Source of the DNA: a virus
Taxonomy: Duplodnaviria; Heunggongvirae; Uroviricota; Caudoviricetes
IMG/VR virus record: IMGVR_UViG_2851938318_000001
Reading direction: 5' to 3' (one strand)
Length of the DNA stretch: 64,000 nt
Both the position numbers and the translations under genes were made by a program. Shown piece by piece: positions 13,096-55,382 of the stretch (the first letter of the stretch is position 1; every line of letters begins with the position of its first letter). The notes beneath the pieces are model-generated. The model was not told the origin of the DNA and did not search any database. It worked only from the letters and a program-made list of their open reading frames with translations.

Positions 13096-14352
13096 CTATC
13101 GAGAACCACCAAGAATAACACGGTTTTTGACTGGATACCTACGATGTACTGGATAGCCCAATGCGTCTGCACTATGCTCAATGCCACCTGTCTTATCCAT
13201 ATCTCGTGTTCCAGGCTTGTAGATGACCTTTTCCAGTGAATCAATCAAATGCTTGCACTTCGGATCGATATACAGCCGGATATCTCCAGATGCGGTCATC
13301 AGCATTCGGTTAACAGCATTAACACGATCCGCAATTGGCGGGTGCTTTTTCGAATAATCGACACGTAAGAATCCCTTCTCTTTGAATATGTCTACGTCAG
13401 ACTCCCCGCGAGCATGTTGGCGATAAGCACCTGCCGGATCTGGAAATACCGTTATCTGTGATTTCCAGCGCCAGAAGCGCCTCTCAAGCTCATCACAAAC
13501 CTCTGCCGTGTTAGAGGAAAAGAGCACCAATTCATCAATTGCCCATAGCTCACCATTTGGCTGAGGTTGCAAAATTACGGAAGACATCGGGTCAATGTTG
13601 AAGTCCTGTCCTACCCATATAGGCAACCGAGGGTTGAACTGAAGCGGTTTAACATGCACGTTTCGATCGAACGGGTAGTAAACGCGCCCGGACATATTTT
13701 CAAAGCTGGCCAGGTACTCCTGAGCGAACGATTTAGGGTCCATATCGTTCTTAGCAGCTTCAATTTCCGCCGTAGGCACAAACGGCGAATCAGCAGTTAC
13801 AAACTGCCAGCTCTTCCACTGTCCCTTTCTTTGCAGCTCTACGTTCTGGCCTATAGTCCACAGTTTGTGAAATTCCGAGAAGCCTTTTGGCGTACCAATA
13901 ATCAGTGCACCGCCGCGTGTCGATGAAAGAGTAGGTCGTAACACCTTGTACCAGGTGTCAGCCTTCATATCCTGAAATTCATCAAGCACTACAAAATGCA
14001 ACGCTACGCCGCGCAGAGTGTCAGGTTTATCAGCTCCTTTGAGGGCGATCTCCGAACCGTTCTTCAACACGATTGTCATCGTGGTGTCGTTCTTTTTCCT
14101 AACCCACTTACGGGGCAGAACTTCCTGTAGATCGTCCCACAAAATCTGGCGAGCCATCTGGTAAGTAGGAGCGACATACCAGACCCTTTGCTTTTTTTCC
14201 TTTGCCGCCGCACGAATAATAGTGGAGATCGACAACCGGGATTTTCCCCAGCGTCGACCAGCACAAACAACTTTAAATCGATGCGGAGACTGGAAGACTT
14301 TCATCTGTCCAGAATGCAGTTGCACAAGACTGAGCGAGGACGGGATTGCCAT
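13096..14352 (-). CDS. terminase large subunit
   Basis: Walker A CAGRRWGKS, Walker B VVLDEFQD; start overlaps TerS stop. Confidence 0.85.
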   Translation of the reverse strand: MAIPSSLSLVQLHSGQMKVFQSPHRFKVVCAGRRWGKSRLSISTIIRAAAKEKKQRVWYVAPTYQMARQILWDDLQEVLPRKWVRKKNDTTMTIVLKNGSEIALKGADKPDTLRGVALHFVVLDEFQDMKADTWYKVLRPTLSSTRGGALIIGTPKGFSEFHKLWTIGQNVELQRKGQWKSWQFVTADSPFVPTAEIEAAKNDMDPKSFAQEYLASFENMSGRVYYPFDRNVHVKPLQFNPRLPIWVGQDFNIDPMSSVILQPQPNGELWAIDELVLFSSNTAEVCDELERRFWRWKSQITVFPDPAGAYRQHARGESDVDIFKEKGFLRVDYSKKHPPIADRVNAVNRMLMTASGDIRLYIDPKCKHLIDSLEKVIYKPGTRDMDKTGGIEHSADALGYPVHRRYPVKNRVILGGSR

Positions 14353-14984
14353 TATTCGTCCTCCCCTTCACTTCCATCATCTGTCGCATCAAATTCGCTT
14401 AGAGCTTCTTCTTCCAACGTCTCAAGCAATTCGTCATCGATGATTTCAGGCTCGTCGTCTTCCTGACGTAATTTCGCCACCTGGGAAGGCGTAAGCTCAC
14501 CAAATACCAGGTTCGGAATTTCTTCCTCGTCATTTTCCGCATGATCCATGCCCAATGCTTTGGACGAAACTTCAAAGCATTTTGCAAGGGTATTACTGGC
14601 TCTCTGTAAGCTCTTGAGAGAACCCTCAATCGCCCCTAAAGGCTTACCCTCACGTTTGGCCGTAGTGACTTCGACCATCACCATCTGCCCCAACGCATAC
14701 GCCCAGCCGTCATAACGTGTACGACGTTCTTCTATCTTTTCCGCACGGGCTTTAGCGCGAAGCTCTGCGTCAGATTTAAGAGACTCACGAACCATCTTCC
14801 CAACAGAGTCCGCGCCTTTCTCTAATCCTCGCTTTTTGAAATGTCTGGAGAGTGTTTCACGACGAATGCCGTACTCTTCCTCCAGCTTTGAGAGTGTATA
14901 TTCGCCTGACGTCCATTTGGCTTCAGCTTCGGCCCACTCCGCTGGTGTCAGGCGAGTTTTTACCTCGTCTTTTTCGACAGTCAT
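14352..14984 (-). CDS. terminase small subunit (putative)
   Basis: 210 aa with N-terminal HTH-like region and acidic C-terminus, immediately upstream of TerL. Confidence 0.55.
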   Translation of the reverse strand: MTVEKDEVKTRLTPAEWAEAEAKWTSGEYTLSKLEEEYGIRRETLSRHFKKRGLEKGADSVGKMVRESLKSDAELRAKARAEKIEERRTRYDGWAYALGQMVMVEVTTAKREGKPLGAIEGSLKSLQRASNTLAKCFEVSSKALGMDHAENDEEEIPNLVFGELTPSQVAKLRQEDDEPEIIDDELLETLEEEALSEFDATDDGSEGEDE

Positions 14985-15182
14985 AGATCCCTCTAAAACA
15001 CACAGAGCGCGTCCATGCGCTCTAAAACAACTTGTTTACTGCATCTGCTAACCAACTTGTTTTCTGGTGTGTCTAATTAGGTCTGGGCATGTCTTACTAA
15101 GCCTGCTTCTGTATATATATTTAATAAGTTACTTATTATTTATATATACAGAAGCAGGTCTTTAAATAACGTCCCAGACCGA

Positions 15183-15449
15183 TTACATCACCAGTAACTT
15201 CGCTTTGGCTCGACCTAAAGTGGTTAACCCAAGAGTCCGGCGGTGATAGCGATTGTCACTGCGTTGGCGCGTATGCCCTTTCTCCACCAGCCCCTTTTTT
15301 ATCAGAGCGCGAATTGAGAACTGGATACTTTGCTTTGTTGTCTTGTACGGCAAAACTTCAAGCAATTCGTCCAGATCAAGTAGATGACCTCGCTCATAAC
15401 CGAGATTGAGCGTTTTGATGATGTCCTTTTGTTTGTCGGTTAACGTCAT
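15183..15449 (-). CDS. small winged-helix DNA-binding protein (putative)
   Basis: 88 aa basic protein; first gene after an overlapping four-gene operon. Confidence 0.35.
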   Translation of the reverse strand: MTLTDKQKDIIKTLNLGYERGHLLDLDELLEVLPYKTTKQSIQFSIRALIKKGLVEKGHTRQRSDNRYHRRTLGLTTLGRAKAKLLVM

Positions 15450-25277: not shown

Positions 25278-25314
25278 AAATAACAAATTGTTTTCTTGTT
25301 GTTGTTAATTATCG
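25278..25314 (-). promoter_or_regulatory. conserved early promoter/operator unit
   Basis: plus-strand aaataacaaattgttttcttgttgttgttaattatcg (rc: CGATAAT...AAGAAAACAAtTTGTT). Confidence 0.55.
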
Positions 25315-25765: not shown

Positions 25766-25798
25766 AAACATGTTGTTTTCTTGTTGGTGTAATTATCG
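25766..25798 (-). promoter_or_regulatory. conserved early promoter/operator unit
   Basis: aaacatgttgttttcttgttggtgtaattatcg. Confidence 0.55.
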
Positions 25799-27112: not shown

Positions 27113-27454
27113 TCAGGCTATTGCCATCACTGATGCTCTCTGAATTTCTTGCTGGGCCACGCGGTTAACTTCCATCAAAGCCAGTTCGAGCTGATGTTCC
27201 GGCCACATTCTTTGAAATGCCACCCAGCCTTTTCCACGCTGGCGGCGAACATTCATTACATAACGAGTAAAGGTGTTTTTATCGAAAGACACCGCGGTTT
27301 CACGGAACAGACGAATAGAGGTTCCATTGGCAACGATGTCCAGCAAAGTTAATTGAGCAACCAGTGCAGGCTTCTCTTTTCTCTTCTGGTCTTTGTCCAG
27401 ACCAAGAACCAATGATTTTTTCATCACAACTCCGTAAACAACTTGTTTTCTCAA
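27113..27454 (-). CDS. hypothetical early protein (likely start 27424, MKKSLVLG...)
   Basis: ORF-track start lies inside the promoter unit; internal Met has RBS. Confidence 0.45.
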   Translation of the reverse strand: MRKQVVYGVVMKKSLVLGLDKDQKRKEKPALVAQLTLLDIVANGTSIRLFRETAVSFDKNTFTRYVMNVRRQRGKGWVAFQRMWPEHQLELALMEVNRVAQQEIQRASVMAIA

Positions 27455-27577: not shown

Positions 27578-27928
27578 TTACGCGAATACCTCAAGAAACT
27601 CCTGAACGTCCCAATGCTGGACGAGGTGAAGATAGACCTTAGAAATCACGTCATTCTCGCTATCGCATGTGAAGTAGTACTTCTGGCTGCGGTTGTATGT
27701 GTCCACACAAAATTCGCTCATATCCATAAAGTCAGCATCTTCACCCAGGTCGCAAATCATCAAAGCAGGTGCGTCATCACGAGTCATCAGCTCAAGCACC
27801 CACCGCGAATTGATCAGAGTGGAAGACCAACCTTCTAACTCATAAAACTGATCAAACTCTTTTTGAGTTAATTTCTTGATTTGGTTGATGTCGATATGTG
27901 CAAACATAAAGCAATCCTTAAACAACAT
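27578..27928 (-). CDS. hypothetical early protein
   Basis: 116 aa acidic ORF directly downstream of promoter unit. Confidence 0.5.
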   Translation of the reverse strand: MLFKDCFMFAHIDINQIKKLTQKEFDQFYELEGWSSTLINSRWVLELMTRDDAPALMICDLGEDADFMDMSEFCVDTYNRSQKYYFTCDSENDVISKVYLHLVQHWDVQEFLEVFA

Positions 27929-27952
27929 GTTTTCTTGTTGGTGTTATTATCG
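27920..27952 (-). promoter_or_regulatory. conserved early promoter/operator unit
   Basis: aaacaacatgttttcttgttggtgttattatcg. Confidence 0.55.
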
Positions 27953-28559: not shown

Positions 28560-29280
28560 CCTCTCTATAGGCGTTAATGCTCACACCTTCCAGAACGTTC
28601 TATACGGCGACTAATTCTGTTGGTGAATTGGGTGTGTTGTTCTCTCTGTCGGTGTAAATGGTTTCGTTAGTTTTGCGGTGGTTCTTCTGTGGGATGTTCT
28701 CGTCGTTTTGGTGATTGTTCTTCTCCGTGTATGGAGTAAAGGCAGGTGGGCGATTCCTTTCGTTATTGTGTTTGAGTTGTTTGTCTGGAGTGTGTGAAGG
28801 GCTTTTGTAGTTATTCGTGTATTGGGTAATGGCGTTTCCCGTGATTGTTATGTTTCGTGTCTTTTGGGATTGAGAGAATCCTTGCGGTTACAGGCTTCGT
28901 TGGGGTTTCAGTGATTCTGGTGTTTCTTCGCTGTTTGGGTAATGGCGTGTCGTGGGTATCGCGCGTATGGAAGTTTCGAATTGCCTGTGAAAGTTAGGTT
29001 GGTTGTCCGGTAGCCTGCCATAAAGAGGTTGGTTGTTTTTGGAATGGCATATGTGTTATTTGGTTGTTTTGTTATACCTGAAAATAAGTTGTTTATATGG
29101 TTGTGTAACGCAACGGGAGCGATTTTGAGCGTGTGTTTTTGTTGGTAGTGTGTTTGGTCGTCTGTGGTGAAAATTGGACGCTGTGGCGCTGTCTGCTGCG
29201 TAGAATTACGGGTATAAGCAGTGATGTGTGAAAACGTCAATTTTTTAGACCAAATCGGGTGAAAGCGTTGATGTTTCGTT
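28560..29280. other. ORF-free region with extreme GT (plus) / CA (minus) strand skew
   Basis: about 0.7 kb almost devoid of C and A on the plus strand; only low-complexity ORFs; promoter unit at 29290-29326 points into it. Confidence 0.5.
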
Positions 29281-30694: not shown

Positions 30695-30765
30695 AAAACA
30701 AGTTGTTTTCTTATGTGGTTTATTATCTCCATCAACAAAAGGCAGAAAACAAATTGTTTTAGGTA
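30695..30765 (-). promoter_or_regulatory. conserved early promoter/operator unit with upstream element
   Basis: aaacaagttgttttcttatgtggtttattatc ... aaaaggcagaaaacaaattgtt. Confidence 0.55.
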
Positions 30766-30843: not shown

Positions 30844-32877
30844 TTACTTAACCTGGTGGCCAGGTTTAGCACCAGCATCCGGGCTTAACAGGAAGATATC
30901 TTTCCCGCCGGGGCCAGCAGCCATCACCATGCCTTCAGAGATACCGAAGCGCATTTTACGTGGTGCCAGGTTAGCCACCATAATGGTGTGACGACCAATC
31001 AGTGCCTGTGGATCTGGATAAGCGGAACGGATGCCTGAGAAGACATTACGCTTTTCACCACCGAGATCCAGCGTCAGGCGAAGCAGTTTGTCAGAACCTT
31101 CTACAAACTCTGCGTTTTCAATCAGCGCCACGCGCAGGTCAACTTTGGCGAAGTCGTCAAAGGTGATAGTTTCCTGAATCGGGTCGTCAGCCAGTGGGCC
31201 AGTTACCGGTGCGGCTGTGGCTTTCACTTCTTCTTTGGATGCTTCCACCAGTGCTTCAACCTGCTTCATATCGATGCGGTTATACAGTGCCTTGAACGGA
31301 TTCACTTTATGGCCCAGCAGCGGTTGCTGGATACCATCCCAGGTCAGTTCTGTATTCAGGAATGCTTCTGCACGTTCAGTCAGTTTCGGCAGTACCGGCT
31401 TCAGGTACGTCATCAGCACGCGGAACAGGTTAATGCCCATAGAGCAAATCGCCTGCAGATCGGCATCGCGTCCTTCCTGCTTCGCCACCACCCACGGAGC
31501 CTGTTCATCGACATAGCGGTTAGCCAGGTCAGCCAATGCCATGATTTCACGGATAGCTTTACCAAATTCGCGGCTTTCCCACGCTTCACCAATCACTTCA
31601 GCGGCATCAGTGAAGGTTTTGTACAACTGCGGGTCAGCCAATTCGCTTGCCAGCACGCCGTCAAAACGCTTGTTGATAAAGCCCGCATTACGAGAGGCCA
31701 GGTTAACCACTTTGTTCACGATATCGGCATTCACGCGCTGAACGAAATCCTCCAGGTTGAGATCGATATCATCAATGCGCGAAGAGAGTTTCGCAGTGTA
31801 GTAGTAACGCAGGCTGTCGGCGTCAAAATGATTCAGCCAGGTGCTGGCTTTAATAAAGGTGCCGCGAGACTTGGACATCTTCGCGCCGTTCACCGTCACA
31901 TAGCCGTGAACAAACAGGTTGGTCGGCTTGCGGAAGTTGCTGCCTTCCAGCATGGCAGGCCAGAACAGGCTGTGGAAGTAAACAATATCTTTACCGATGA
32001 AGTGGTACAGCTCGGCGGTGGAGTCTTTCTTCCAGTATTCATCGAAGCTGGAGGTGTCGCCGCGTTTGTCGCACAGATTCTTGAAGGAACCCATGTAGCC
32101 AATCGGCGCGTCCAGCCAGACGTAGAAATATTTGCCCGGTGCGTTCGGAATTTCAAAACCGAAGTACGGCGCATCGCGGGAGATATCCCACTGTTGCAGA
32201 CCAGATTCAAACCACTCCTGCATTTTGTTTGCCACCTGCTCCTGCAACGCACCGCTGCGGGTCCATGCCTGCAACATTTCGCTGAAAGAAGGCAGATCAA
32301 AGAAGAAGTGTTCGGAATCACGCATTACCGGCGTAGCACCAGAAACTACCGATTTCGGCTCGATCAGTTCAGTAGGGCTGTATGTCGCGCCGCAGACTTC
32401 ACAGTTATCGCCGTATTGATCCGGCGCTTTACATTTCGGGCATGTGCCTTTCACAAAACGGTCCGGCAGGAACATGCCTTTTTCCGGGTCGTACAGCTGA
32501 GAGATGGTGCGGTTTTTAATAAAACCGTTCTCTTTCAGGCGAGTATAGATAAGCTCGGACAACTGACGGTTCTCTTCGCTGTGCGTCGAGTGATAGTTGT
32601 CATAGCTGATGTTAAAGCCTGCAAAATCAGTCTGGTGTTCCTGACTCATTTCGCCAATCATCTGTTCCGGTGTGATACCAAGCTGCTGTGCTTTCAGCAT
32701 GATCGGTGTGCCGTGGGCATCGTCGGCACAGATGAAATTAACCTCGTGGCCGCGCATTCGCTGGTAACGAACCCAGACATCAGCCTGGATGTGCTCCAGC
32801 ATATGGCCGAGGTGGATTGAGCCGTTAGCGTACGGCAGCGCGCACGTCACCAGAATTTTCTTCGCGACTTGGGTCAT
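30844..32877 (-). CDS. metG: methionyl-tRNA synthetase (E. coli chromosomal type)
   Basis: protein from [31 protein letters not shown]... with KMSKS motif, recognised as E. coli MetRS; ORF-track start 33006 is upstream extension. Confidence 0.95.
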
Positions 32878-33034
32878 AGTAGGCATTACTTCTTTGTAGT
32901 GAAAAGGGGCTTGATAGTAACAAAATGGCCTTATGTCTGCCATGTGATAACAGCATTTCTCATAAATGATTAAATGCCGTAGCTGGAGTACACTACAAGG
33001 CGACAATTGCGCAAATTAAAATAAAGGAGACGGG

Positions 33035-34135
33035 ATGAGCGAGTCCAAATCGCCGGATGCCCTGAGAGCAATGGTAGCCGGTACGCTGGCTAATTTTCAG
33101 CACCCAACCCTGAAACACAATCTGACTACGCTTAAAGCGTTACACCATGTTGCGTTGATGGATGACACACTGCATGTCGAACTAATCATGCCTTTCGTGT
33201 GGAATAAGCCTTTTGAAGACCTGAAAGAGCAATGTAGTGGTGATCTGCTCCGTATCACTGGCGCAAAGGCTATTGACTGGAAGCTGTCGTACAACATTGC
33301 CACGCTTAAGCGCGTCAAAAACCAACCAGGCATTAATGGCGTGAAGAACATTATCGCCGTCAGCTCAGGCAAGGGCGGCGTTGGTAAATCCTCCACGGCG
33401 GTAAACCTGGCACTGGCGTTGGCTGCTGAAGGTGCGAAAGTTGGTATTTTGGATGCCGATATCTACGGGCCATCAATTCCAACCATGCTTGGCGCGGAAA
33501 ACCAACGTCCAACCTCACCGGACGGTACTCACATGGCACCGATTATGTCTCATGGACTGGCAACCAATTCAATTGGTTATCTGGTAACTGACGACAATGC
33601 GATGGTGTGGCGTGGTCCGATGGCGAGCAAGGCGTTAATGCAGATGTTGCAGGAAACTCTATGGCCTGATCTGGACTATCTCGTTCTCGATATGCCGCCG
33701 GGTACTGGTGATATTCAGCTGACGCTGGCGCAGAACATTCCTGTAACTGGTGCTGTTGTGGTAACTACGCCGCAAGATATCGCGCTGATCGATGCGAAGA
33801 AAGGCATTGTGATGTTCGAAAAAGTCGAAGTGCCGGTACTGGGTATCGTCGAAAACATGAGTGTGCATATTTGCAGTAACTGCGGTCATCACGAGCCAAT
33901 TTTTGGCACCGGTGGCGCACAGAAGCTGGCCGAGAAATACAACACGCAGTTGTTAGGCCAAATGCCACTTCATATCTCTCTTCGTGAAGATCTGGATAAC
34001 GGAACACCAACCGTTATTAGTCGTCCAGATAGCGAATTTACGGCTATTTATCGTGACCTCGCAGATCGCGTTGCTGCCCAAATGTATTGGCAAGGTGAAG
34101 TAATACCTGGCGAAATCGCATTCCGCGCAGTGTGA
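33035..34135 (+). CDS. apbC: Fe-S cluster carrier ATPase ApbC/Mrp (E. coli chromosomal type)
   Basis: P-loop AVSSGKGGVGKSS and CxxC (CSNCGH); divergent from metG as in the E. coli chromosome. Confidence 0.93.
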   Translation: MSESKSPDALRAMVAGTLANFQHPTLKHNLTTLKALHHVALMDDTLHVELIMPFVWNKPFEDLKEQCSGDLLRITGAKAIDWKLSYNIATLKRVKNQPGINGVKNIIAVSSGKGGVGKSSTAVNLALALAAEGAKVGILDADIYGPSIPTMLGAENQRPTSPDGTHMAPIMSHGLATNSIGYLVTDDNAMVWRGPMASKALMQMLQETLWPDLDYLVLDMPPGTGDIQLTLAQNIPVTGAVVVTTPQDIALIDAKKGIVMFEKVEVPVLGIVENMSVHICSNCGHHEPIFGTGGAQKLAEKYNTQLLGQMPLHISLREDLDNGTPTVISRPDSEFTAIYRDLADRVAAQMYWQGEVIPGEIAFRAV

Positions 34136-38462: not shown

Positions 38463-38600
38463 GTGTTTTTCTCTTCTTTGCTGTTACATAAGCACTACCA
38501 AGTGCTGGTTTATTTTCACAAATAAGAAAAGGTAGAAAACAATTTATTTAAGGCCATAAGTTATGGCCTTTATTTATTCATGCAGAAGGATTTGTAGCGC

Positions 38601-39746: not shown

Positions 39747-41432
39747 TCATTTAACGCGTTTGAAAACGTATACGCTGACTGTGATCCCGGTATCTTCAAA
39801 CTCGTTGGTAAACGACTTCCCTCTGGCATAAACGTAATTATCCATCGTCATCCAGTCCAGTATTGGCGCAGTGCCCGGCAATACTGCTACAAGACGCCCT
39901 CCGACTTTCAGATGCCCCAGCGCAGCAAGCGTGTGTTCTCTATGACGACCAAGCGAGTACGGCGGGTTCATAACGATTTTGTCGAACTGATAACCTGCGT
40001 TGTCCTCAGACCACTTTATGAAGTCGCAGCAAATCGTGTTCGTATACCCTTTTCCACGCAGGATATCAGCGAAGAGAGGTGCGATTTCTATGCAAGTAAC
40101 ATCTTCCAGATCGGCGTTAATATAGGCCAGAAGATCCCCACGTCCGGCTTGAGGCTCCAACAGCTTCTCACCAGGCTTCAATTCAGTGGCTCTGGCAACG
40201 TACTCAGCAATCAAGCGTGGGGTAGGGTAGAACTGGTGTGATTTTGTATCCGGTATTAAACCGGTAGCCACAATCGTATTTAGCGTATGGCCGATGTCAT
40301 ACGGGAACTGCCAGTGCTTTTTCTCCTGCACGCCGCCAATGAAGCTCAGTGTGCGCTCAAGCTCTTCCACCTGCGACTTCTGGAGAGCTGAATCAGAGAA
40401 GTACCATACGCCTTTGTCTTTGCTTAATCGCCCGTCACGAAGCGCAGTGCGAACCGGCACGGAGATCGTCTTCTGGATTAACCCGAACTGCTTTGGTGCC
40501 CGTGTTTTTGGCGCGGTGCGACATGGCGCGGGGATTGCAGCAGGCATACTGTAAGCCAGCACCTCATTCAACTTCCAGGCCACGTCAGGATGTATTTCAA
40601 AGTGAACGTTGCCGTTCTTGAACATCTTCACGCGCATTAGATTTCCATCGACGTTCATCCAGTCACCGGTCTGGCAGTCGTTTGCCCGATACGCAGCTGA
40701 TAGCACCTCAGCAGTGCGGTTGATGGTAATAAATTCTTTGTGCGCGAAGAAATGAAGCAAGACACGCAGATCGTCGATATAGTCCTCTTTGCGATAGTTC
40801 ACACTAACGCTGTCCCGCCAGAAATCAGAAATGCAGTCAGCGATTATCAGACGTTCGCTGAAACCGTTTGTCTTATTTGTCTTGTGCGCAGGACTCAGCG
40901 CCTTAAACAAGCCATACACGCGCTCAGAGAGATATTTGTGCCTGTCATTCAGCAAATTAAGCATCGTGGGTATGACCGTTTCTGCTTTGAACTCCGGTAC
41001 ACCAACGAACTCTTTAACCTTCATCTGGTAGCCGGTTCTGTCAGTTTTGATGACTTCCTGTTTGCCCTCTATAAACTGCTCGCGCCACTCATCTCGACGG
41101 GAAGCAGGCATGATCAGCAAAACGTTAGTCATGTCCGTGACCTTCCTCCAGTACTCGGCCCAAATATTCTGTTTCACCCATTCCAGATCGACTTTATCCA
41201 ACCAACCTCGATTTAAACGCGAGCGATCTTCATCTGGTCGATGGTTTAGTCTCAGCAGGCGATTAATCATGTTGTGGCGTTCGTCGCCATAAACGAAGTC
41301 GTGTACCTGATACATGAAGGCGATCTCTTTCTCGCACTCGGCCACAATTTCGTGGATGACGTTCATTTCCTGCCGATAGTCGATAGCAGTGTTTGAGTTG
41401 GCATCGTCGATGATGGAAAGGGCTGTATTCAT
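39747..41432 (-). CDS. DNA N6-adenine methyltransferase with large N-terminal domain
   Basis: motif I LEPQAGRGDLL followed by motif IV NPPYS near C-terminus. Confidence 0.6.
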   Translation of the reverse strand: MNTALSIIDDANSNTAIDYRQEMNVIHEIVAECEKEIAFMYQVHDFVYGDERHNMINRLLRLNHRPDEDRSRLNRGWLDKVDLEWVKQNIWAEYWRKVTDMTNVLLIMPASRRDEWREQFIEGKQEVIKTDRTGYQMKVKEFVGVPEFKAETVIPTMLNLLNDRHKYLSERVYGLFKALSPAHKTNKTNGFSERLIIADCISDFWRDSVSVNYRKEDYIDDLRVLLHFFAHKEFITINRTAEVLSAAYRANDCQTGDWMNVDGNLMRVKMFKNGNVHFEIHPDVAWKLNEVLAYSMPAAIPAPCRTAPKTRAPKQFGLIQKTISVPVRTALRDGRLSKDKGVWYFSDSALQKSQVEELERTLSFIGGVQEKKHWQFPYDIGHTLNTIVATGLIPDTKSHQFYPTPRLIAEYVARATELKPGEKLLEPQAGRGDLLAYINADLEDVTCIEIAPLFADILRGKGYTNTICCDFIKWSEDNAGYQFDKIVMNPPYSLGRHREHTLAALGHLKVGGRLVAVLPGTAPILDWMTMDNYVYARGKSFTNEFEDTGITVSVYVFKRVK

Positions 41433-41535
41433 AATTGCACCATTAAGAAGTGATTTGTTTAATGGTGCAATTATTTCAAAAATGAAAAGGTACTAAATAG
41501 AAATAAACAGGCAATCCTTCAAATAAAGGCATTGG

Positions 41536-42434
41536 CTAATCATACTTGGAGGTATTTATCACCAGAATTTTGTTTGTATAAATCTTCTTAATATCCCATG
41601 TGACATTACCGGAATACCATTGACCGTTATATACTTGGTTTCCAGTTGCACCTGTCATTGTTACATAGACAGGTCTGTCGTAATCGGTTCGTCTATAGTT
41701 ATATACCCCAACCATAGCAGGCATTACCGCACATGGATACCCCATATCTATTGTAAATTGAGGGTCAGAAATAGTGATAAGTTTCGCATCAAGGGGCATC
41801 ATCTCACCGTGATACACCATTGCGCCTGCGCTGTTATACATGGCAATGCCATAGCCAGAATGTGGTAACACCATATCAGAAAAAGCATAAACTGTTATTG
41901 TTCCGGGGCTACCATTTACCTGATGCAATCTGAGAGCATTGTATCCGTTACTATGCTCATGAATAAACATCATGTTCGCCTTATTACTGCTTTTTATGAA
42001 GAAAAAGCATGATTTGTTTGATGGAATTGATGTTTGAAAAACAGAACCTTTAGATGTAGACATTGTCCCTTTATTAATCAGATTTTGCGGAGTAAATTCT
42101 GGACTCATCCACAAACTTCCATCTGATTGTGTAATTGACATCCCGAACATAATTATCCCCAGTATGTGTATATGTAAGAACCAAGCCCCGTATATAAATT
42201 TGACCAACTAACCGTATTTCCATTAATAGTAACTGTTGGAACAGGTAAATTAATGTAGTTGTCGTTGTTAAGAGGCATCAATGACCACACGGCATGTAGC
42301 GATTTACCCGGTGGCGGATTGGAGTACGTCTTAGAGCCTGATGACGCAGTAAATCGATCAAGAAAAAAAATAGGAGTAAGGAAGCCAGTAACGTTAATTC
42401 CTTTATTGTTGTAAATCCCTGTACCGTATGCCAT
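41536..42434 (-). pseudogene. low-GC Tyr/Asn/Gly-rich gene, apparently frameshifted or two overlapping ORFs
   Basis: ORFs 42153..42434 and 41536..42207 overlap in different frames; markedly AT-rich. Confidence 0.3.
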
Positions 42435-42489
42435 TTTTCATCCTTGTTTTTTATCAACACAATATGGCCGATCATGCGGCCATATCAGA

Positions 42490-43059
42490 TCAATTAGAGC
42501 TTTGAAAGGCTTTGTGTGGCTGTGTTGCGAGGTTATGTCGATGGCTTAACTCACGCATCATGTCTTCAAGCCGACTCTTTGTGTCGTCGAGTTGGTCGGC
42601 CATTGCTCCCAAAAGCTGACGAACGGCCATCGGATCATCGCTGTTTAGTGATGGCATTTTATAACCCGCCTGAGAAGACATAAGATTGAACGCAGACATC
42701 AACATCGTTAGAGAGGATTTAAGCCCAGCAATTTCACGATCTTTGCTGGCAATAATCGCCTCACTCTTGTTAGTGTCATCAGTTCGTTGAGTCTCGCTCA
42801 CCATATCCAAAGTCGCCTGCAACTTATCAGCGCGCTCTTTTTCAGCAAGATAATGAACACCGAAATGATGTGCTAAAGCTACAACCTGAGTTGGCTCTTC
42901 AAAGGTGGACTCAAAATTAAGTGCTGTAACCACTCTCTCAAATATGGAAACGTCTTCTATTCCTCGAAGAATGGCTAACATTTTGACCAGTTCATTAGCA
43001 TCCATTTCTTCGAATAAGGCGTTTTGTTCATCAGCTATCGCTTTGCATTTCTTGCACAT
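42490..43059 (-). CDS. hypothetical early protein
   Basis: 189 aa ORF directly downstream of promoter unit. Confidence 0.45.
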   Translation of the reverse strand: MCKKCKAIADEQNALFEEMDANELVKMLAILRGIEDVSIFERVVTALNFESTFEEPTQVVALAHHFGVHYLAEKERADKLQATLDMVSETQRTDDTNKSEAIIASKDREIAGLKSSLTMLMSAFNLMSSQAGYKMPSLNSDDPMAVRQLLGAMADQLDDTKSRLEDMMRELSHRHNLATQPHKAFQSSN

Positions 43060-43077
43060 GTGTTTTTCCTAATGCTT

Positions 43078-43112
43078 AAACAAGTTGTTTTCTTATTGGC
43101 TTTATTGTGATG
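43078..43112 (-). promoter_or_regulatory. conserved early promoter/operator unit
   Basis: aaacaagttgttttcttattggctttattgtgatg. Confidence 0.5.
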
Positions 43113-43356
43113 TGGCATAAAAGGGGAGCAAGCTAAACGTAAAGGTGCAAACTCTCTATTTCGGTCAACGAAACACAAGGGCCATTTGGCCCTTGTCATT
43201 AACACGTTGCTTTACGGACTAGCGGATAAGCGAAGTAGATCGCCAGACCAATGAGGACGCCATCAGAAATGACAGACATCATCTTTCCCGTAAAATCCAC
43301 CAACACCGCCATCACCAGAAGAGCAATGACGGTCACAAGCCGGAATCTCTCAAGCA

Positions 43357-43782
43357 TTAGAGATAAGCATCCAGTGACAACTGAAGCGCCTGTGCGATCT
43401 TTTTCAGTGCCAGCTCTTCTTGTTCGCCAATACCGTCTTGGTCGGCAATATCAAGGCACAGACACAGTACATCTACTGCATCATTAGTCCCGGCCACATC
43501 AGCCAGCTCACGTAAAGCCTGGGCATTAGCGCGGCGCGGTGAGGCTTCGTATTGAGCACGGATATTGGCGCTCATTTGGGCAATCTCACCAGCAAACGGA
43601 GAAAACGCAGGCAGAGCTGCAATTGTTTTCTCAAGAATGGAAATTTCCTTTGCGTCGCATGTGCCATCGGCATAGGAGATCATGTACGCGCCCCACACGG
43701 TGGCTTCAACCGCATCTCGGTTCTCCATTTTTTTGACCTCGATAACAGCTTTACGAGTTTTCTTTTTGAATAAACCTAACAT
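43357..43782 (-). CDS. TerB-like domain protein (putative)
   Basis: two ADG/QDG-x-D/E segments (YADGTCDAKEISILEK, DQDGIGEQEELALKKI) resembling TerB metal-binding motifs. Confidence 0.35.
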   Translation of the reverse strand: MLGLFKKKTRKAVIEVKKMENRDAVEATVWGAYMISYADGTCDAKEISILEKTIAALPAFSPFAGEIAQMSANIRAQYEASPRRANAQALRELADVAGTNDAVDVLCLCLDIADQDGIGEQEELALKKIAQALQLSLDAYL

Positions 43783-43805: not shown

Positions 43806-43828
43806 AAAACAAGTTGTTTTCTAGTTAC
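43806..43828 (-). promoter_or_regulatory. conserved early promoter/operator unit (core palindrome)
   Basis: aaaacaagttgttttctagttac. Confidence 0.45.
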
Positions 43829-46155: not shown

Positions 46156-46316
46156 AAAATCGATTTTAAAGCGTCTGGGAAGGGGTTCTAGTGGATTCTG
46201 TAGTGATGTTCAGGTCTGGAGTCTCTGATACAAAACAGCCTGCTTCCGTATATTAATAATTAATATGTAGTTATTTATATATACAGAAGCAGGCTAATTA
46301 CAGACGCCAGAACAAA

Positions 46317-46910
46317 CTAAGCAGCCTTCTTTGATGGTCTTTTTTTCCTGATCACATTCGCAGGATCATACCCTCCCAGACTTTTCATGACGTCCAAAGG
46401 GATCTTGCTTATAGAGTGCCCAGCGTCCTGACAGAATCCTCGAAAAACAACGAGCATACTGCCACCTGGGTTGATGTTTACTTCTACCTGACCCAGATTG
46501 ACGTCAGGCTCGACAAACGCTACGCGGCCACCAGACAGAATAATCGTCTCATTCGCACACTCTGTTGCACGCTCATACCACTTTGTATCTAGGGATTGAG
46601 GAATTAGCATCACTGTTGTAACTCCGCGAGCCTGCTCACGTATAGCCGCATCAATCCAGGGGGAGATTTTGGAGTAGGGTGGATTGAGGAAGGCAATTGT
46701 ACCTGGCTGTCCCCATTCAGATTTCAAAGCATCACGCTCAACGCCTATGAAATTAGGCAGCTTTGCATTGTCCTTGTTGCAGGCAACGTCAACATCAAAT
46801 GTCACTCCAAGATAACGTTGAATGGCAGAAAACAGCCAGTCAGGTGTTCTCCAGAGGTCACGAAGAGAGTTGTCGCGCTTTCGCTGTTTGATTTTTTCGG
46901 CTGCAATCAT
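46317..46910 (-). CDS. phage Dam-type DNA N6-adenine methyltransferase
   Basis: FLNPPYS motif, about 200 aa. Confidence 0.7.
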   Translation of the reverse strand: MIAAEKIKQRKRDNSLRDLWRTPDWLFSAIQRYLGVTFDVDVACNKDNAKLPNFIGVERDALKSEWGQPGTIAFLNPPYSKISPWIDAAIREQARGVTTVMLIPQSLDTKWYERATECANETIILSGGRVAFVEPDVNLGQVEVNINPGGSMLVVFRGFCQDAGHSISKIPLDVMKSLGGYDPANVIRKKRPSKKAA

Positions 46911-53229: not shown

Positions 53230-54099
53230 TTATTTTTTGATCATTCCGTACATTGCTGAGGCTTTAGCTTGCTCAACAAAGGAGGATAAATCGACATCAC
53301 TATAGGTTGGAGACTTCAGAATCTTTCCATCGGAAATTCGAAAACCGATCATCTTATCGGTACCATCAGCATGGCGAAATCCCAGGTCTGAAGAGTCGTA
53401 TTTGCAGTTGGCCACAGCCTGGCGACGTTCCTCGACATCAGCAGGCCATAATTTTGTCATGTTAGACCGGTGAATTTCGCCAACCAGCTCGACTACATTG
53501 ATACCGAGGAAATCAGCCAGTCGATAGGTCATCATGCACGCCACATAGATTTTGTTCATGACACGGCGCAGTTCCTGAATCAGCTCAGAATCCTTAACAG
53601 TCTTGTTCTCAAGTTTATCTGCCAGCTCTTCGAGCATACATGACGCCTCACGAGCTTCCTGAAATGGCATTGCCATATCATCGAAAACAGTGTTACCGGG
53701 CACAAAAATTGTCTGCATAAAGCGATCAATGCTCTGTTCCTGCGTGTAATAGGTCATGCCGGTAGAAATACCACCTTTGATGGCGACCATCGTACCAACA
53801 CCAACGTATAAAAAGTCGGCCATTGCATCCAGCAGTTGCTCAATATCCCCATTCATTGCAGCTGGAATACCTTCCACTACAGCTTCTTCATGAATCAGGC
53901 TTGCACGGAGACGAAGCAGCTCTGGTGTCGGCATAACGCGTCTCGGATGCTGGAAGAGTTCATGAAACTGATCGACCATCTTGTAAATACTTTCAGTGGC
54001 TACACCATGGCCTTCATGCAACTCATATGGTTCTGGCTTAAATCCAATGAGTCGATCGGTGGCAAGTTTCAGGTGGTCAGTCAGTTTGGTAAAGTTCAT
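53230..54099 (-). CDS. hypothetical protein, possibly all-alpha NTP pyrophosphohydrolase (MazG-like)
   Basis: two EExxE/D-containing helical segments; location in nucleotide-metabolism operon. Confidence 0.25.
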   Translation of the reverse strand: MNFTKLTDHLKLATDRLIGFKPEPYELHEGHGVATESIYKMVDQFHELFQHPRRVMPTPELLRLRASLIHEEAVVEGIPAAMNGDIEQLLDAMADFLYVGVGTMVAIKGGISTGMTYYTQEQSIDRFMQTIFVPGNTVFDDMAMPFQEAREASCMLEELADKLENKTVKDSELIQELRRVMNKIYVACMMTYRLADFLGINVVELVGEIHRSNMTKLWPADVEERRQAVANCKYDSSDLGFRHADGTDKMIGFRISDGKILKSPTYSDVDLSSFVEQAKASAMYGMIKK

Positions 54100-55349: not shown

Positions 55350-55382
55350 TAAACAAGTTGTTATCTTATGTGTTTAAACAAG
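55350..55382 (-). promoter_or_regulatory. conserved early promoter/operator unit upstream of nrdB
   Basis: aaacaagttgttatcttatgtgtttaaacaagg. Confidence 0.5.

Follow-up and report, generated by a model that had tools for sequence, protein, structure and literature searches.

Structure and Gene Context of the Palindromes

The DNA analysed here is a stretch of 64,000 nucleotides from a virus of the Caudoviricetes (IMG/VR record IMGVR_UViG_2851938318_000001; "the window" denotes this whole stretch), and the element in question is a large nested palindrome that stands in front of its terminase genes. This copy, site 1, extends from 15080 to 15180 and was delimited by repeat search, folding and a conservation footprint. 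In the inverted-repeat search it consists of two 50-nt arms (15080-15129 and 15131-15180) that are 76% complementary around a dyad at 15130. Genes around it are all encoded on the minus strand, and the element is described in the same orientation. Directly upstream lies a conserved 88-aa gene (15183-15449, minus strand), which is annotated as a "DNA binding domain containing protein" in phage Cyrano and falls into PHROG 900. Directly downstream follow terS (14352-14984, minus strand), annotated as a small terminase or DNA-binding protein of 210 aa, terL (13096-14352, minus strand), a 418-aa protein of the Terminase_6N/Terminase_3 type according to Pfam, and then the portal gene; the initial annotation had correctly placed the element upstream of the terminase genes.

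Read along the plus strand, site 1 begins with a terS-proximal outer arm of 8 nt, GGTCTGGG (15080-15087; 90% conserved), and continues with a terS-proximal inner arm of 16 nt, CCTGCTTCTGTATATA (15102-15117; 93% conserved), which is the half retained, and changing in concert, in distant lineages. An AT-rich centre of 25 nt (15118-15142; 87% conserved) follows, nearly all A+T and containing the perfect sub-palindrome TAATAAGT-T-ACTTATTA. The terS-distal inner arm, TATATACAGAAGCAGG (15143-15158; 94.5% conserved), is the exact complement of the proximal one, and the distal outer arm, CCCAGACC (15173-15180; GGTCTGGG in gene orientation), is 98% conserved across 62 distinct relatives and begins 2 nt past the stop codon of the 88-aa gene. 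The spacers separating inner from outer arms are 14 nt each and are not complementary. Both the inner and outer inverted repeats and the AT-rich loop that had been proposed from the sequence are thus present, except that the outer arm starts at 15080, about 10 nt away from the 15090 first given.

The second copy, site 2 (46237-46295, minus strand), was found by repeat search, folding and comparison with relatives between a gene for a Dam-family N6-adenine methyltransferase, identified by domain assignment (46317-46910, minus strand), and a gene of 76 or 84 aa. Its arms (46237-46253 and 46279-46295) are 17 nt long and 94% complementary, and its centre of 25 nt is AT-rich but non-palindromic. 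The inner arm lies 24 nt past the stop codon of the Dam-family gene (21 nt when the 17-nt arm of the repeat search is taken). A copy at 46 kb had been noticed together with an outer pair, gcgtctg (46172-46178) and cagacgc (46301-46307); the pair does exist in the window, but its pairing is not conserved among relatives, where the conserved feature near site 2 is a repeated GTCTGG/CCAGAC motif. Exact matches to a 15-nt arm pattern are confined, in the 64-kb window, to the four arms of sites 1 and 2. As single-stranded DNA, site 1 folds at -29.2 and -29.7 kcal/mol compared with -6.6 and -6.3 kcal/mol for shuffled sequences (z about -10.3; none of 200 shuffles folded as well), and site 2 reaches z = -5.5 and -4.7. 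Because the strands fold far better than shuffles, formation of a cruciform or hairpin should be easy.

Three Fixed Positions in SSU5-Like Phage-Plasmids

The window derives from an SSU5-like phage-plasmid. Escherichia phages CMS-2020a and PhiR41_1 share 98% identity with it, Salmonella phage SSU5 shares 88%, and several Klebsiella phages share about 80%. The 181-nt region of the element is 100% identical to Escherichia coli plasmid pRM9131-1 (NZ_CP028430.1), and the window aligns with the reverse complement of this plasmid at least through sites 1 and 2. A scan of the complete 117-kb plasmid disclosed a third copy outside the window, site 3, at 93048-93102 (43048-43102 in our L014). On one side it has a parA/parB-like operon, and on the other a gene for a 246-aa protein followed by those for a DnaB-like helicase and primase. 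The centres of sites 1 and 3 are alike except for one TA repeat unit, by which that of site 1 is longer. All three sites are co-oriented in pRM9131-1, with the dyad centres 135-146 nt ahead of the next start codon and the inner arm starting 24-30 nt past the preceding stop codon. Site 2 is located in a cluster for nucleotide metabolism and replication, and site 3 abuts the replication operon. A generic search of the same plasmid for GC-armed palindromes with AT-rich spacers returned only sites 1-3 and one unrelated hairpin.

The arm-spacer-arm pattern was found in 120 elements in IMG/VR, and by homology of their flanks every one occupies an orthologous position: 59 stand at site 1, 44 at site 2 and 17 at site 3, with none elsewhere. 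A mobile palindromic repeat of the MITE or REP-like kind can be rejected, since all 120 copies are orthologous and the plasmid scan yielded no extra copy. About 790 plasmids in PLSDB carry the element, usually at two to four matching places per record, and they come from at least eight genera, including Klebsiella, Escherichia, Enterobacter, Yersinia, Salmonella, Citrobacter, Cronobacter and Shigella. Clinical Enterobacteriaceae commonly harbour SSU5-like phage-plasmids, a group that includes relatives of Salmonella Typhi pHCM2 and Yersinia pestis pMT1 and carries resistance genes. In the literature searched, the cis-acting DNA of the SSU5 group (lytic origin, centromere, packaging site and operators) is essentially uncharacterised, and no earlier description of the palindrome element was found. 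Two conserved families of cis elements are now defined in these genomes, namely the three large co-evolving palindromes and a 13-bp palindrome at 16-21 gene starts, with exact coordinates and testable candidate readers.

The element stays with its replication-side flank, and the opposite flank is a mosaic junction with varied inserted genes, including a GIY-YIG gene. At site 3, the interval from the parB-like gene to the palindrome (92169-92936 in pRM9131-1) is a mosaic hotspot, as seen in L136-L215, for example on comparing L136 with L137. Among 78 loci, the interval is free of inserts in 15, contains a GIY-YIG (LEM-3-like) gene in the opposite orientation in 25 and holds other sequences in 38. 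The palindrome and everything beyond it are conserved.

Conservation and Concerted Change of the Arms

The sites compared for signs of selection were retrieved through their neighbouring genes, so the arm sequence itself did not bias the sample. Arms are recognisable at 74 of 75 site-1 loci, 68 of 80 site-2 loci and 78 of 80 site-3 loci, and 92%-100% of the arm positions form Watson-Crick or G.T pairs. Relative to the consensus CCTGC.T..GTATATA, hardly any change is seen at positions 1-4, 7 and 10-12; the variable positions are 5, 6, 8 and 9, with compensatory double changes as well as mismatches. The footprint of the site-1 intergenic region, measured as identity to the window over 62 distinct sequences, gives 0.98 and 0.90 for the outer arms, 0.945 and 0.933 for the inner arms and 0.87 for the centre, as against 0.56 and 0.59 for the spacers and 0.69-0.76 for third codon positions of the flanking genes. 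The palindrome is therefore conserved across relatives, which is the comparison that the initial annotation had called for, and it is under strong selection, purifying in the arms. The A+T tract between the 12-nt GC-containing cores of the arms is 94% A+T at all three sites, and the centre remains AT-rich throughout while its sequence and length (25-51 nt) turn over.

More distant lineages have changed their arms. A syntenic Klebsiella plasmid, CP027615.1, carries a different replicon; its TerL is 91% identical to that of the window, and most of its other proteins are 45-80% identical. Its sites 1-3 all carry ...TTTAAAGACTTTAAAAG.TATTAAATA..TATAGGAGCCAGGC, that is, a common new AT tract and gene-proximal arm, and the distal arm is partly retained at site 1 only. 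Similarly, in a Morganella lineage the site-2 arm TATCGGAGCACGGCTTA (L369) matches the site-3 arm TATGGGAGCACGGCTTA (L384), with GGAGCACGGCTTA common to both, and the distal arm of site 3 is degenerate; these two loci both come from 103,989-bp contigs, which were taken as one contig. For the most distant lineages with altered arms, a plasmid-database search gave no match and the strict arm-pattern scan detected site 2 only. The copies examined within each lineage thus change together, and the functional core appears to be the AT tract with the proximal arm. Every lineage keeps, as its invariant feature, a long tract with an A+T content of about 90% beside a conserved recognition arm. Judging from these lineages, perfect dyad symmetry typifies the clade of E. 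coli, Klebsiella and Salmonella without being required universally.

Several other features of the distant lineages may be recorded here. In CP027615.1 (L381 26785-26965 and L382 26014-26343, its sites 2 and 3, respectively) and in L361-L367, a strong hairpin resembling an intrinsic terminator, for example AGAGATTCAGGCAC-TTAC-GTGCCTTAATCTCT-GTTTTT, comes within 10-40 nt after the conserved half-element. Site 3 of CP027615 has a second arm-like sequence in the opposite orientation about 110 nt onward. Between pRM9131-1 and CP027615.1, DNA-recognition partners diverge much faster than enzymatic ones: TerS is 58% identical compared with 91% for TerL, the partner of ParA 48% compared with 68% for ParA, and the 246-aa protein 53% compared with 68% for DnaB.

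Constraint on the sequence of the arms itself indicates sequence-specific recognition and not pairing alone, and we consider it probable that the palindromes are a family of DNA recognition sites present in three copies and not a packaging signal. One alternative is an RNA hairpin, which would stabilise mRNA 3'-ends or be processed by RNase III at operon boundaries. The hairpin is indeed very stable, it is located 24-30 nt past stop codons, its sense strand contains more G.U than C.A pairs at two sites (7:1 at site 1 and 16:2 at site 3, counted over distinct arm pairs), and compensatory double changes occur at the four variable positions. Most arm positions, however, are conserved in sequence and do not covary, at site 2 the excess is of C.A over G.U pairs, distant lineages have lost the distal arm, site 3 of pRM9131-1 stands between divergent genes, and the element lacks a U-tract and matches no Rfam family. 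Template switching, too, can produce compensatory changes in a DNA palindrome. An RNA function is unlikely. An intrinsic (rho-independent) terminator was rejected because scans detect no GC stem with a T-run at the palindromes and only a separate hairpin at 15003-15024, and a known RNA family (Rfam 15) because the only matches were generic miRNA-precursor hairpins scoring 20-29 bits against thresholds of 55-211.

A Dispersed 13-bp Palindrome and the Leader of terS

The leader of terS holds a second, separate element. Two AAACAAnTTGTTT cores had been noticed there together with the large palindrome; both exist, an exact copy proximal to terS, AAACAACTTGTTT (15025-15037; 97.5% conserved), and one with a single mismatch, AACCAACTTGTTT (15050-15062; 74% conserved; absent from Klebsiella relatives), but they belong to a distinct, dispersed motif and are not part of the palindrome. 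The 13-mer AAACAAnTTGTTT occurs 13 times in the window with at most one mismatch, where 0.45 copies would be expected and no shuffle reached 13. Besides the two in the terS leader, the copies lie at 25281-25293, 25766-25778, 27436-27448, 27920-27932, 29082-29094, 30696-30708, 30747-30759, 38537-38549, 43078-43090, 43807-43819 and 55351-55363. In the complete pRM9131-1 there are 16 copies (0.36 expected), all of them intergenic and followed after 24-87 nt by the start of a gene running in the same direction; among these genes are nrdB, terS, parA, dnaB and cobT. The flank that these sites share upstream of the motif, GATAAT-N13, resembles a -10 hexamer, and on this reading the palindrome would span about +6 to +19. 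The distant CP027615 has the motif in unchanged form at 21 sites, with terS, dnaB and parA once more among the genes concerned. From its copy number and placement, the 13-mer is probably a genome-wide operator or promoter element. The closest analogue among known systems is the C1-operator network of P1, in which many dispersed operators control lytic genes of a plasmid prophage. Both cases concern a phage-plasmid with one short motif repeated at gene starts throughout the genome, here in at least 16 copies; the C1 operators, however, are asymmetric 17-mers and the present motif is a perfect palindrome of 13 bp, and the likeness is to this motif and not to the large palindrome.

Between the exact 13-mer and terS, about 20 nt ahead of the start codon, lies a terminator-like hairpin, TAGAGCGCATGGACGCGCTCTG followed by TGTGTTTT (15003-15024, minus strand; 91% conserved), which could be an attenuator or antitermination target of the late operon. 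A direct repeat, TGTTTTAGAG, flanks this hairpin. As for the suggestion that the region controls the terminase operon, the leader of terS does bear the shared regulatory signal in the form of the 13-mer, but the large palindrome is not specific to terminase, having copies beside the Dam gene and the par and DnaB operons.

Possible Roles in Replication and Transcription

Our best guess for the function of the palindromes, put forward with low confidence, is that they are lytic replication origins. One DNA-binding protein encoded by the element's own genome would read the arms, above all the gene-proximal one, and the A+T tract of 25-35 bp between the 16-bp arms would be opened or bent. The three sites would then act as origins in which inverted initiator sites surround an easily melted AT tract, allowing replication to start in the lytic cycle and serving the phage-plasmid's own replisome of DnaB, primase and Pol III. 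Consistent with this, an easily melted tract of 94% A+T is flanked by arms conserved at 93-95%, and AT-richness is kept in distant lineages. The placement of sites 2 and 3 among replication genes and the retained replication-side flank also speak for it. The phage-plasmid encodes its own replisome genes, and a lytic origin is not among its annotations. The 246-aa protein always precedes DnaB and primase, and in an Acinetobacter phage-plasmid the homologous module of 246-aa protein, DnaB and primase is located directly downstream of an iteron origin and repM. Multi-copy viral origins with inverted initiator sites around an AT tract are known from herpes simplex virus (HSV; two oriS and oriL) and from Bacillus phage SPP1 (oriL and oriR). 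The architecture of the present element resembles theirs, and also that of the dispersed centromeres of N15 and pSM19035 (omega sites). The HSV and SPP1 origins likewise have conserved inverted arms with an A+T tract, in several dispersed, near-identical intergenic copies of which one lies beside replication genes; on the other hand, the arms are unrelated in sequence, the distant relatives here have one arm only, and one of the copies stands directly before terminase genes.

Other results lend origin function no support. The 246-aa protein has no relative in Pfam or PDB, its structural model (pLDDT 78) shows weak helical similarities only, and no initiator was identified. GC skew follows a monotonic course governed mainly by gene orientation and is thus uninformative as an indicator of an origin. 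No DnaA box or IHF consensus was found in the palindromes. We infer that a protein reads the arms, and likewise the identity of that protein and the choice of replication, over partition or transcription, as the output.

Transcriptional control at operon boundaries is a possible though rather doubtful alternative to the origin reading. According to it, the palindromes would bind a lytic activator or the prophage repressor upstream of three key promoters, those of the packaging and structural genes, the replication genes and an early cluster. Their intergenic position in all three copies, the shared orientation with the genes and the distances to the preceding stop and the following start codon all agree with such a role, as does the retention of the gene-proximal arm in distant lineages. 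To the right of each copy there is also a string, AGAC..CCAGA, which resembles the sequence directly preceding the 13-mer in the promoter-like sites. No sigma-70 promoter was found inside the element at the threshold of the tool used, and the absence of a consensus promoter is what factor-dependent promoters would predict. Nevertheless, the spacing of 12-28 nt from the proximal arm to the promoter-like string is a poor geometry for a classical activator, the separate and far more abundant 13-mer already marks the promoters of this family, and in CP027615 a terminator intervenes between the unit and the downstream gene.

Dispersed Centromere Sites

The position of site 3 next to a par operon raises the question of partition. 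Here the palindromes would be dispersed, parS-like centromere sites used by the ParA, which is of type Ib, together with its partner of 117 aa. Phage-plasmid N15 has four scattered sopC-like inverted-repeat centromere sites of about 16 bp that are read by a helix-turn-helix (HTH) protein of the ParB type, and pSM19035 has three parS/operator sites bound by omega. As in these systems, a few palindromic sites are dispersed over the genome of a phage-plasmid, one of them by the par operon, at the heads of lytic or replication operons, and this placement makes a dual role in partition and silencing conceivable. In the basal arrangement without an insert, as well as in the distant CP027615, site 3 starts 30 nt past the stop codon of the partner gene, and no repeat array able to serve as a centromere was seen upstream of parA. 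A reduced derivative of 52 kb has lost DnaB and primase and has kept parAB with site 3, and the partner gene is present in 796 plasmids whose distribution over genera closely tracks that of the element.

Centromere function is nevertheless unlikely. In the lineage with changed arms the partner is 48% identical overall, and its putative DNA-reading segments (KSRTMSxEDE and FTRSDVIRAAI) are invariant between lineages whose arms differ; these invariant segments would suit an invariant target such as the 13-mer, which has one copy in the parA promoter and of which the ParA partner is a candidate reader on the strength of that segment. The comparison with N15 also falls short in two respects: the N15 sites are short, whereas the arms here are 16 bp each and about 41 bp apart from centre to centre, and their reader is of the ParB HTH type, whereas the reading residues of the present partner stay where the arms change. 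A ribbon-helix-helix fold of the 117-aa protein was not confirmed, and neither this protein nor the 246-aa protein gave sequence matches in Pfam or PDB or confident fold matches. Y. pestis pMT1 lacks this par pair and yet keeps site 1 intact, which would speak against a centromere. As a natural experiment, however, pMT1 is uninformative, since its methyltransferase, DnaB and par regions are missing altogether and nothing is left of the regions of sites 2 and 3.

Packaging and Other Classes of Elements

The location of site 1 directly upstream of terS and terL had led to the proposal of a structure near a pac or cos site. In its explicit form, terminase would cut site 1 as a cos (or pac) site and leave the other copies, mere look-alikes, uncut. 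The cos of lambda-type phages consists of cosQ, cosN and cosB upstream of Nu1 and A, and the likenesses are that site 1 also immediately precedes terS and terL, that the candidate cut region is partly two-fold symmetric and that two records end there. The linear GenBank records of SSU5 (JQ965645) and Cyrano (OV696614) start and end in the centre of site 1, 9-10 nt from the dyad, at ...TTATTA(A)|ATATATAC..., which corresponds to 15120|15121 or 15121|15122 of the window. When the ends are joined no bases are lost, and the length is that of circular relatives. In addition, TerS diverges fast relative to TerL in the lineage with altered arms.

This evidence is countered at several points, which together make a packaging site improbable. 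A cos site, at which terminase introduces staggered nicks, is single in a genome, but here there are three copies per genome, and the centres of sites 1 and 3 differ by one TA unit only. The repeats between the palindrome and terS are 13-mers belonging to a probable genome-wide promoter or operator set, so the two cores ahead of terS are not cosB-like terminase-binding repeats specific to packaging, in contrast to those of lambda. The TerL also belongs to another family than that of lambda, Terminase_6N/Terminase_3. Its nearest solved structure is the TerL of Thermus phage P74-26, and its nearest characterised relatives are those of P74-26 and of T5-like and Jersey-like phages, none with a classic cos, although identities are low (about 25% to the T5-like and Jersey-like phages). 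Furthermore, the draft IMG/VR contigs L138 and L151 start inside the site-3 palindrome, and the ends of SSU5 may thus be an assembly break as well. Three near-identical repeats of 55 nt fragment short-read assemblies, and therefore record ends at a palindrome are no evidence of physical termini; the palindromes explain the fragmentation of these plasmids at three fixed places in such assemblies. Two other draft contigs, L318 and L353, end shortly before the site-2 palindrome. Neither the SSU5 nor the Cyrano record has an annotated cos feature at either end, and the literature searched contains no description of termini, cos, origins or palindromes of the SSU5 group. Cyrano is the re-annotated plasmid pLF82, the paper on Cyrano gives no termini for it, and the start of its record was probably picked to match SSU5. 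Accordingly, a demonstrated cos site should not be read into the two ends of the SSU5 reference record.

A combined scheme, to which we give only a faint chance, takes the SSU5 ends as real. Terminase would cut site 1, and the factor that reads site 1 would also read sites 2 and 3 for replication or partition, so that packaging, replication and inheritance are coupled and only the copy on the terS side is licensed for cleavage. Cuts about 9.5 nt to either side of the site-1 dyad would leave a self-complementary overhang of about 19 nt, TTAATAAGTTACTTATTAA. Site 2 would be an arm-only variant, and site 3 the same palindrome placed at the junction of replication and partition.

Two more classes of elements were considered. 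A LexA box (CTGT-N8-ACAG) was rejected, as the half-box-like arms CTGTATAT are about 39 bp apart and their CTG is CCG or TCG in many lineages. For a protelomerase target of the N15 telRL type, the records are circular (pRM9131-1, pRHB27-C04_3, an Enterobacter ludwigii plasmid, pMT-pPCP, CP027615.1 and the Klebsiella and PhiR41_1 phages), and no protelomerase is annotated, only a 367-aa integrase, although no domain search for protelomerase was made. Overall, the element does not pass the tests that define cos sites, terminators, Rfam families, mobile repeats, telRL sites or LexA boxes.

Other Features of the Phage-Plasmid

Apart from the genes that border the palindromes, pRM9131-1 has at 40158-43449 host-like genes annotated as apbC and metG (methionine-tRNA ligase), which reverse-complement mapping would place at about 30844-34135 of the window. 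Two sites of the 13-mer come directly after metG. The phage-plasmid also carries dnaE, nrdB, thyA, a dihydrofolate reductase gene and rnhA. The 13-mer associated with nrdB is found at 55351-55363 of the window, while 54038-54050 is predicted from pRM9131-1, and the final 200 nt of the window have no exact match in that plasmid. The two genomes therefore differ by an indel, about 1.3 kb in size and located between 46 and 55 kb of the window, which is perhaps an insertion sequence (IS) element.

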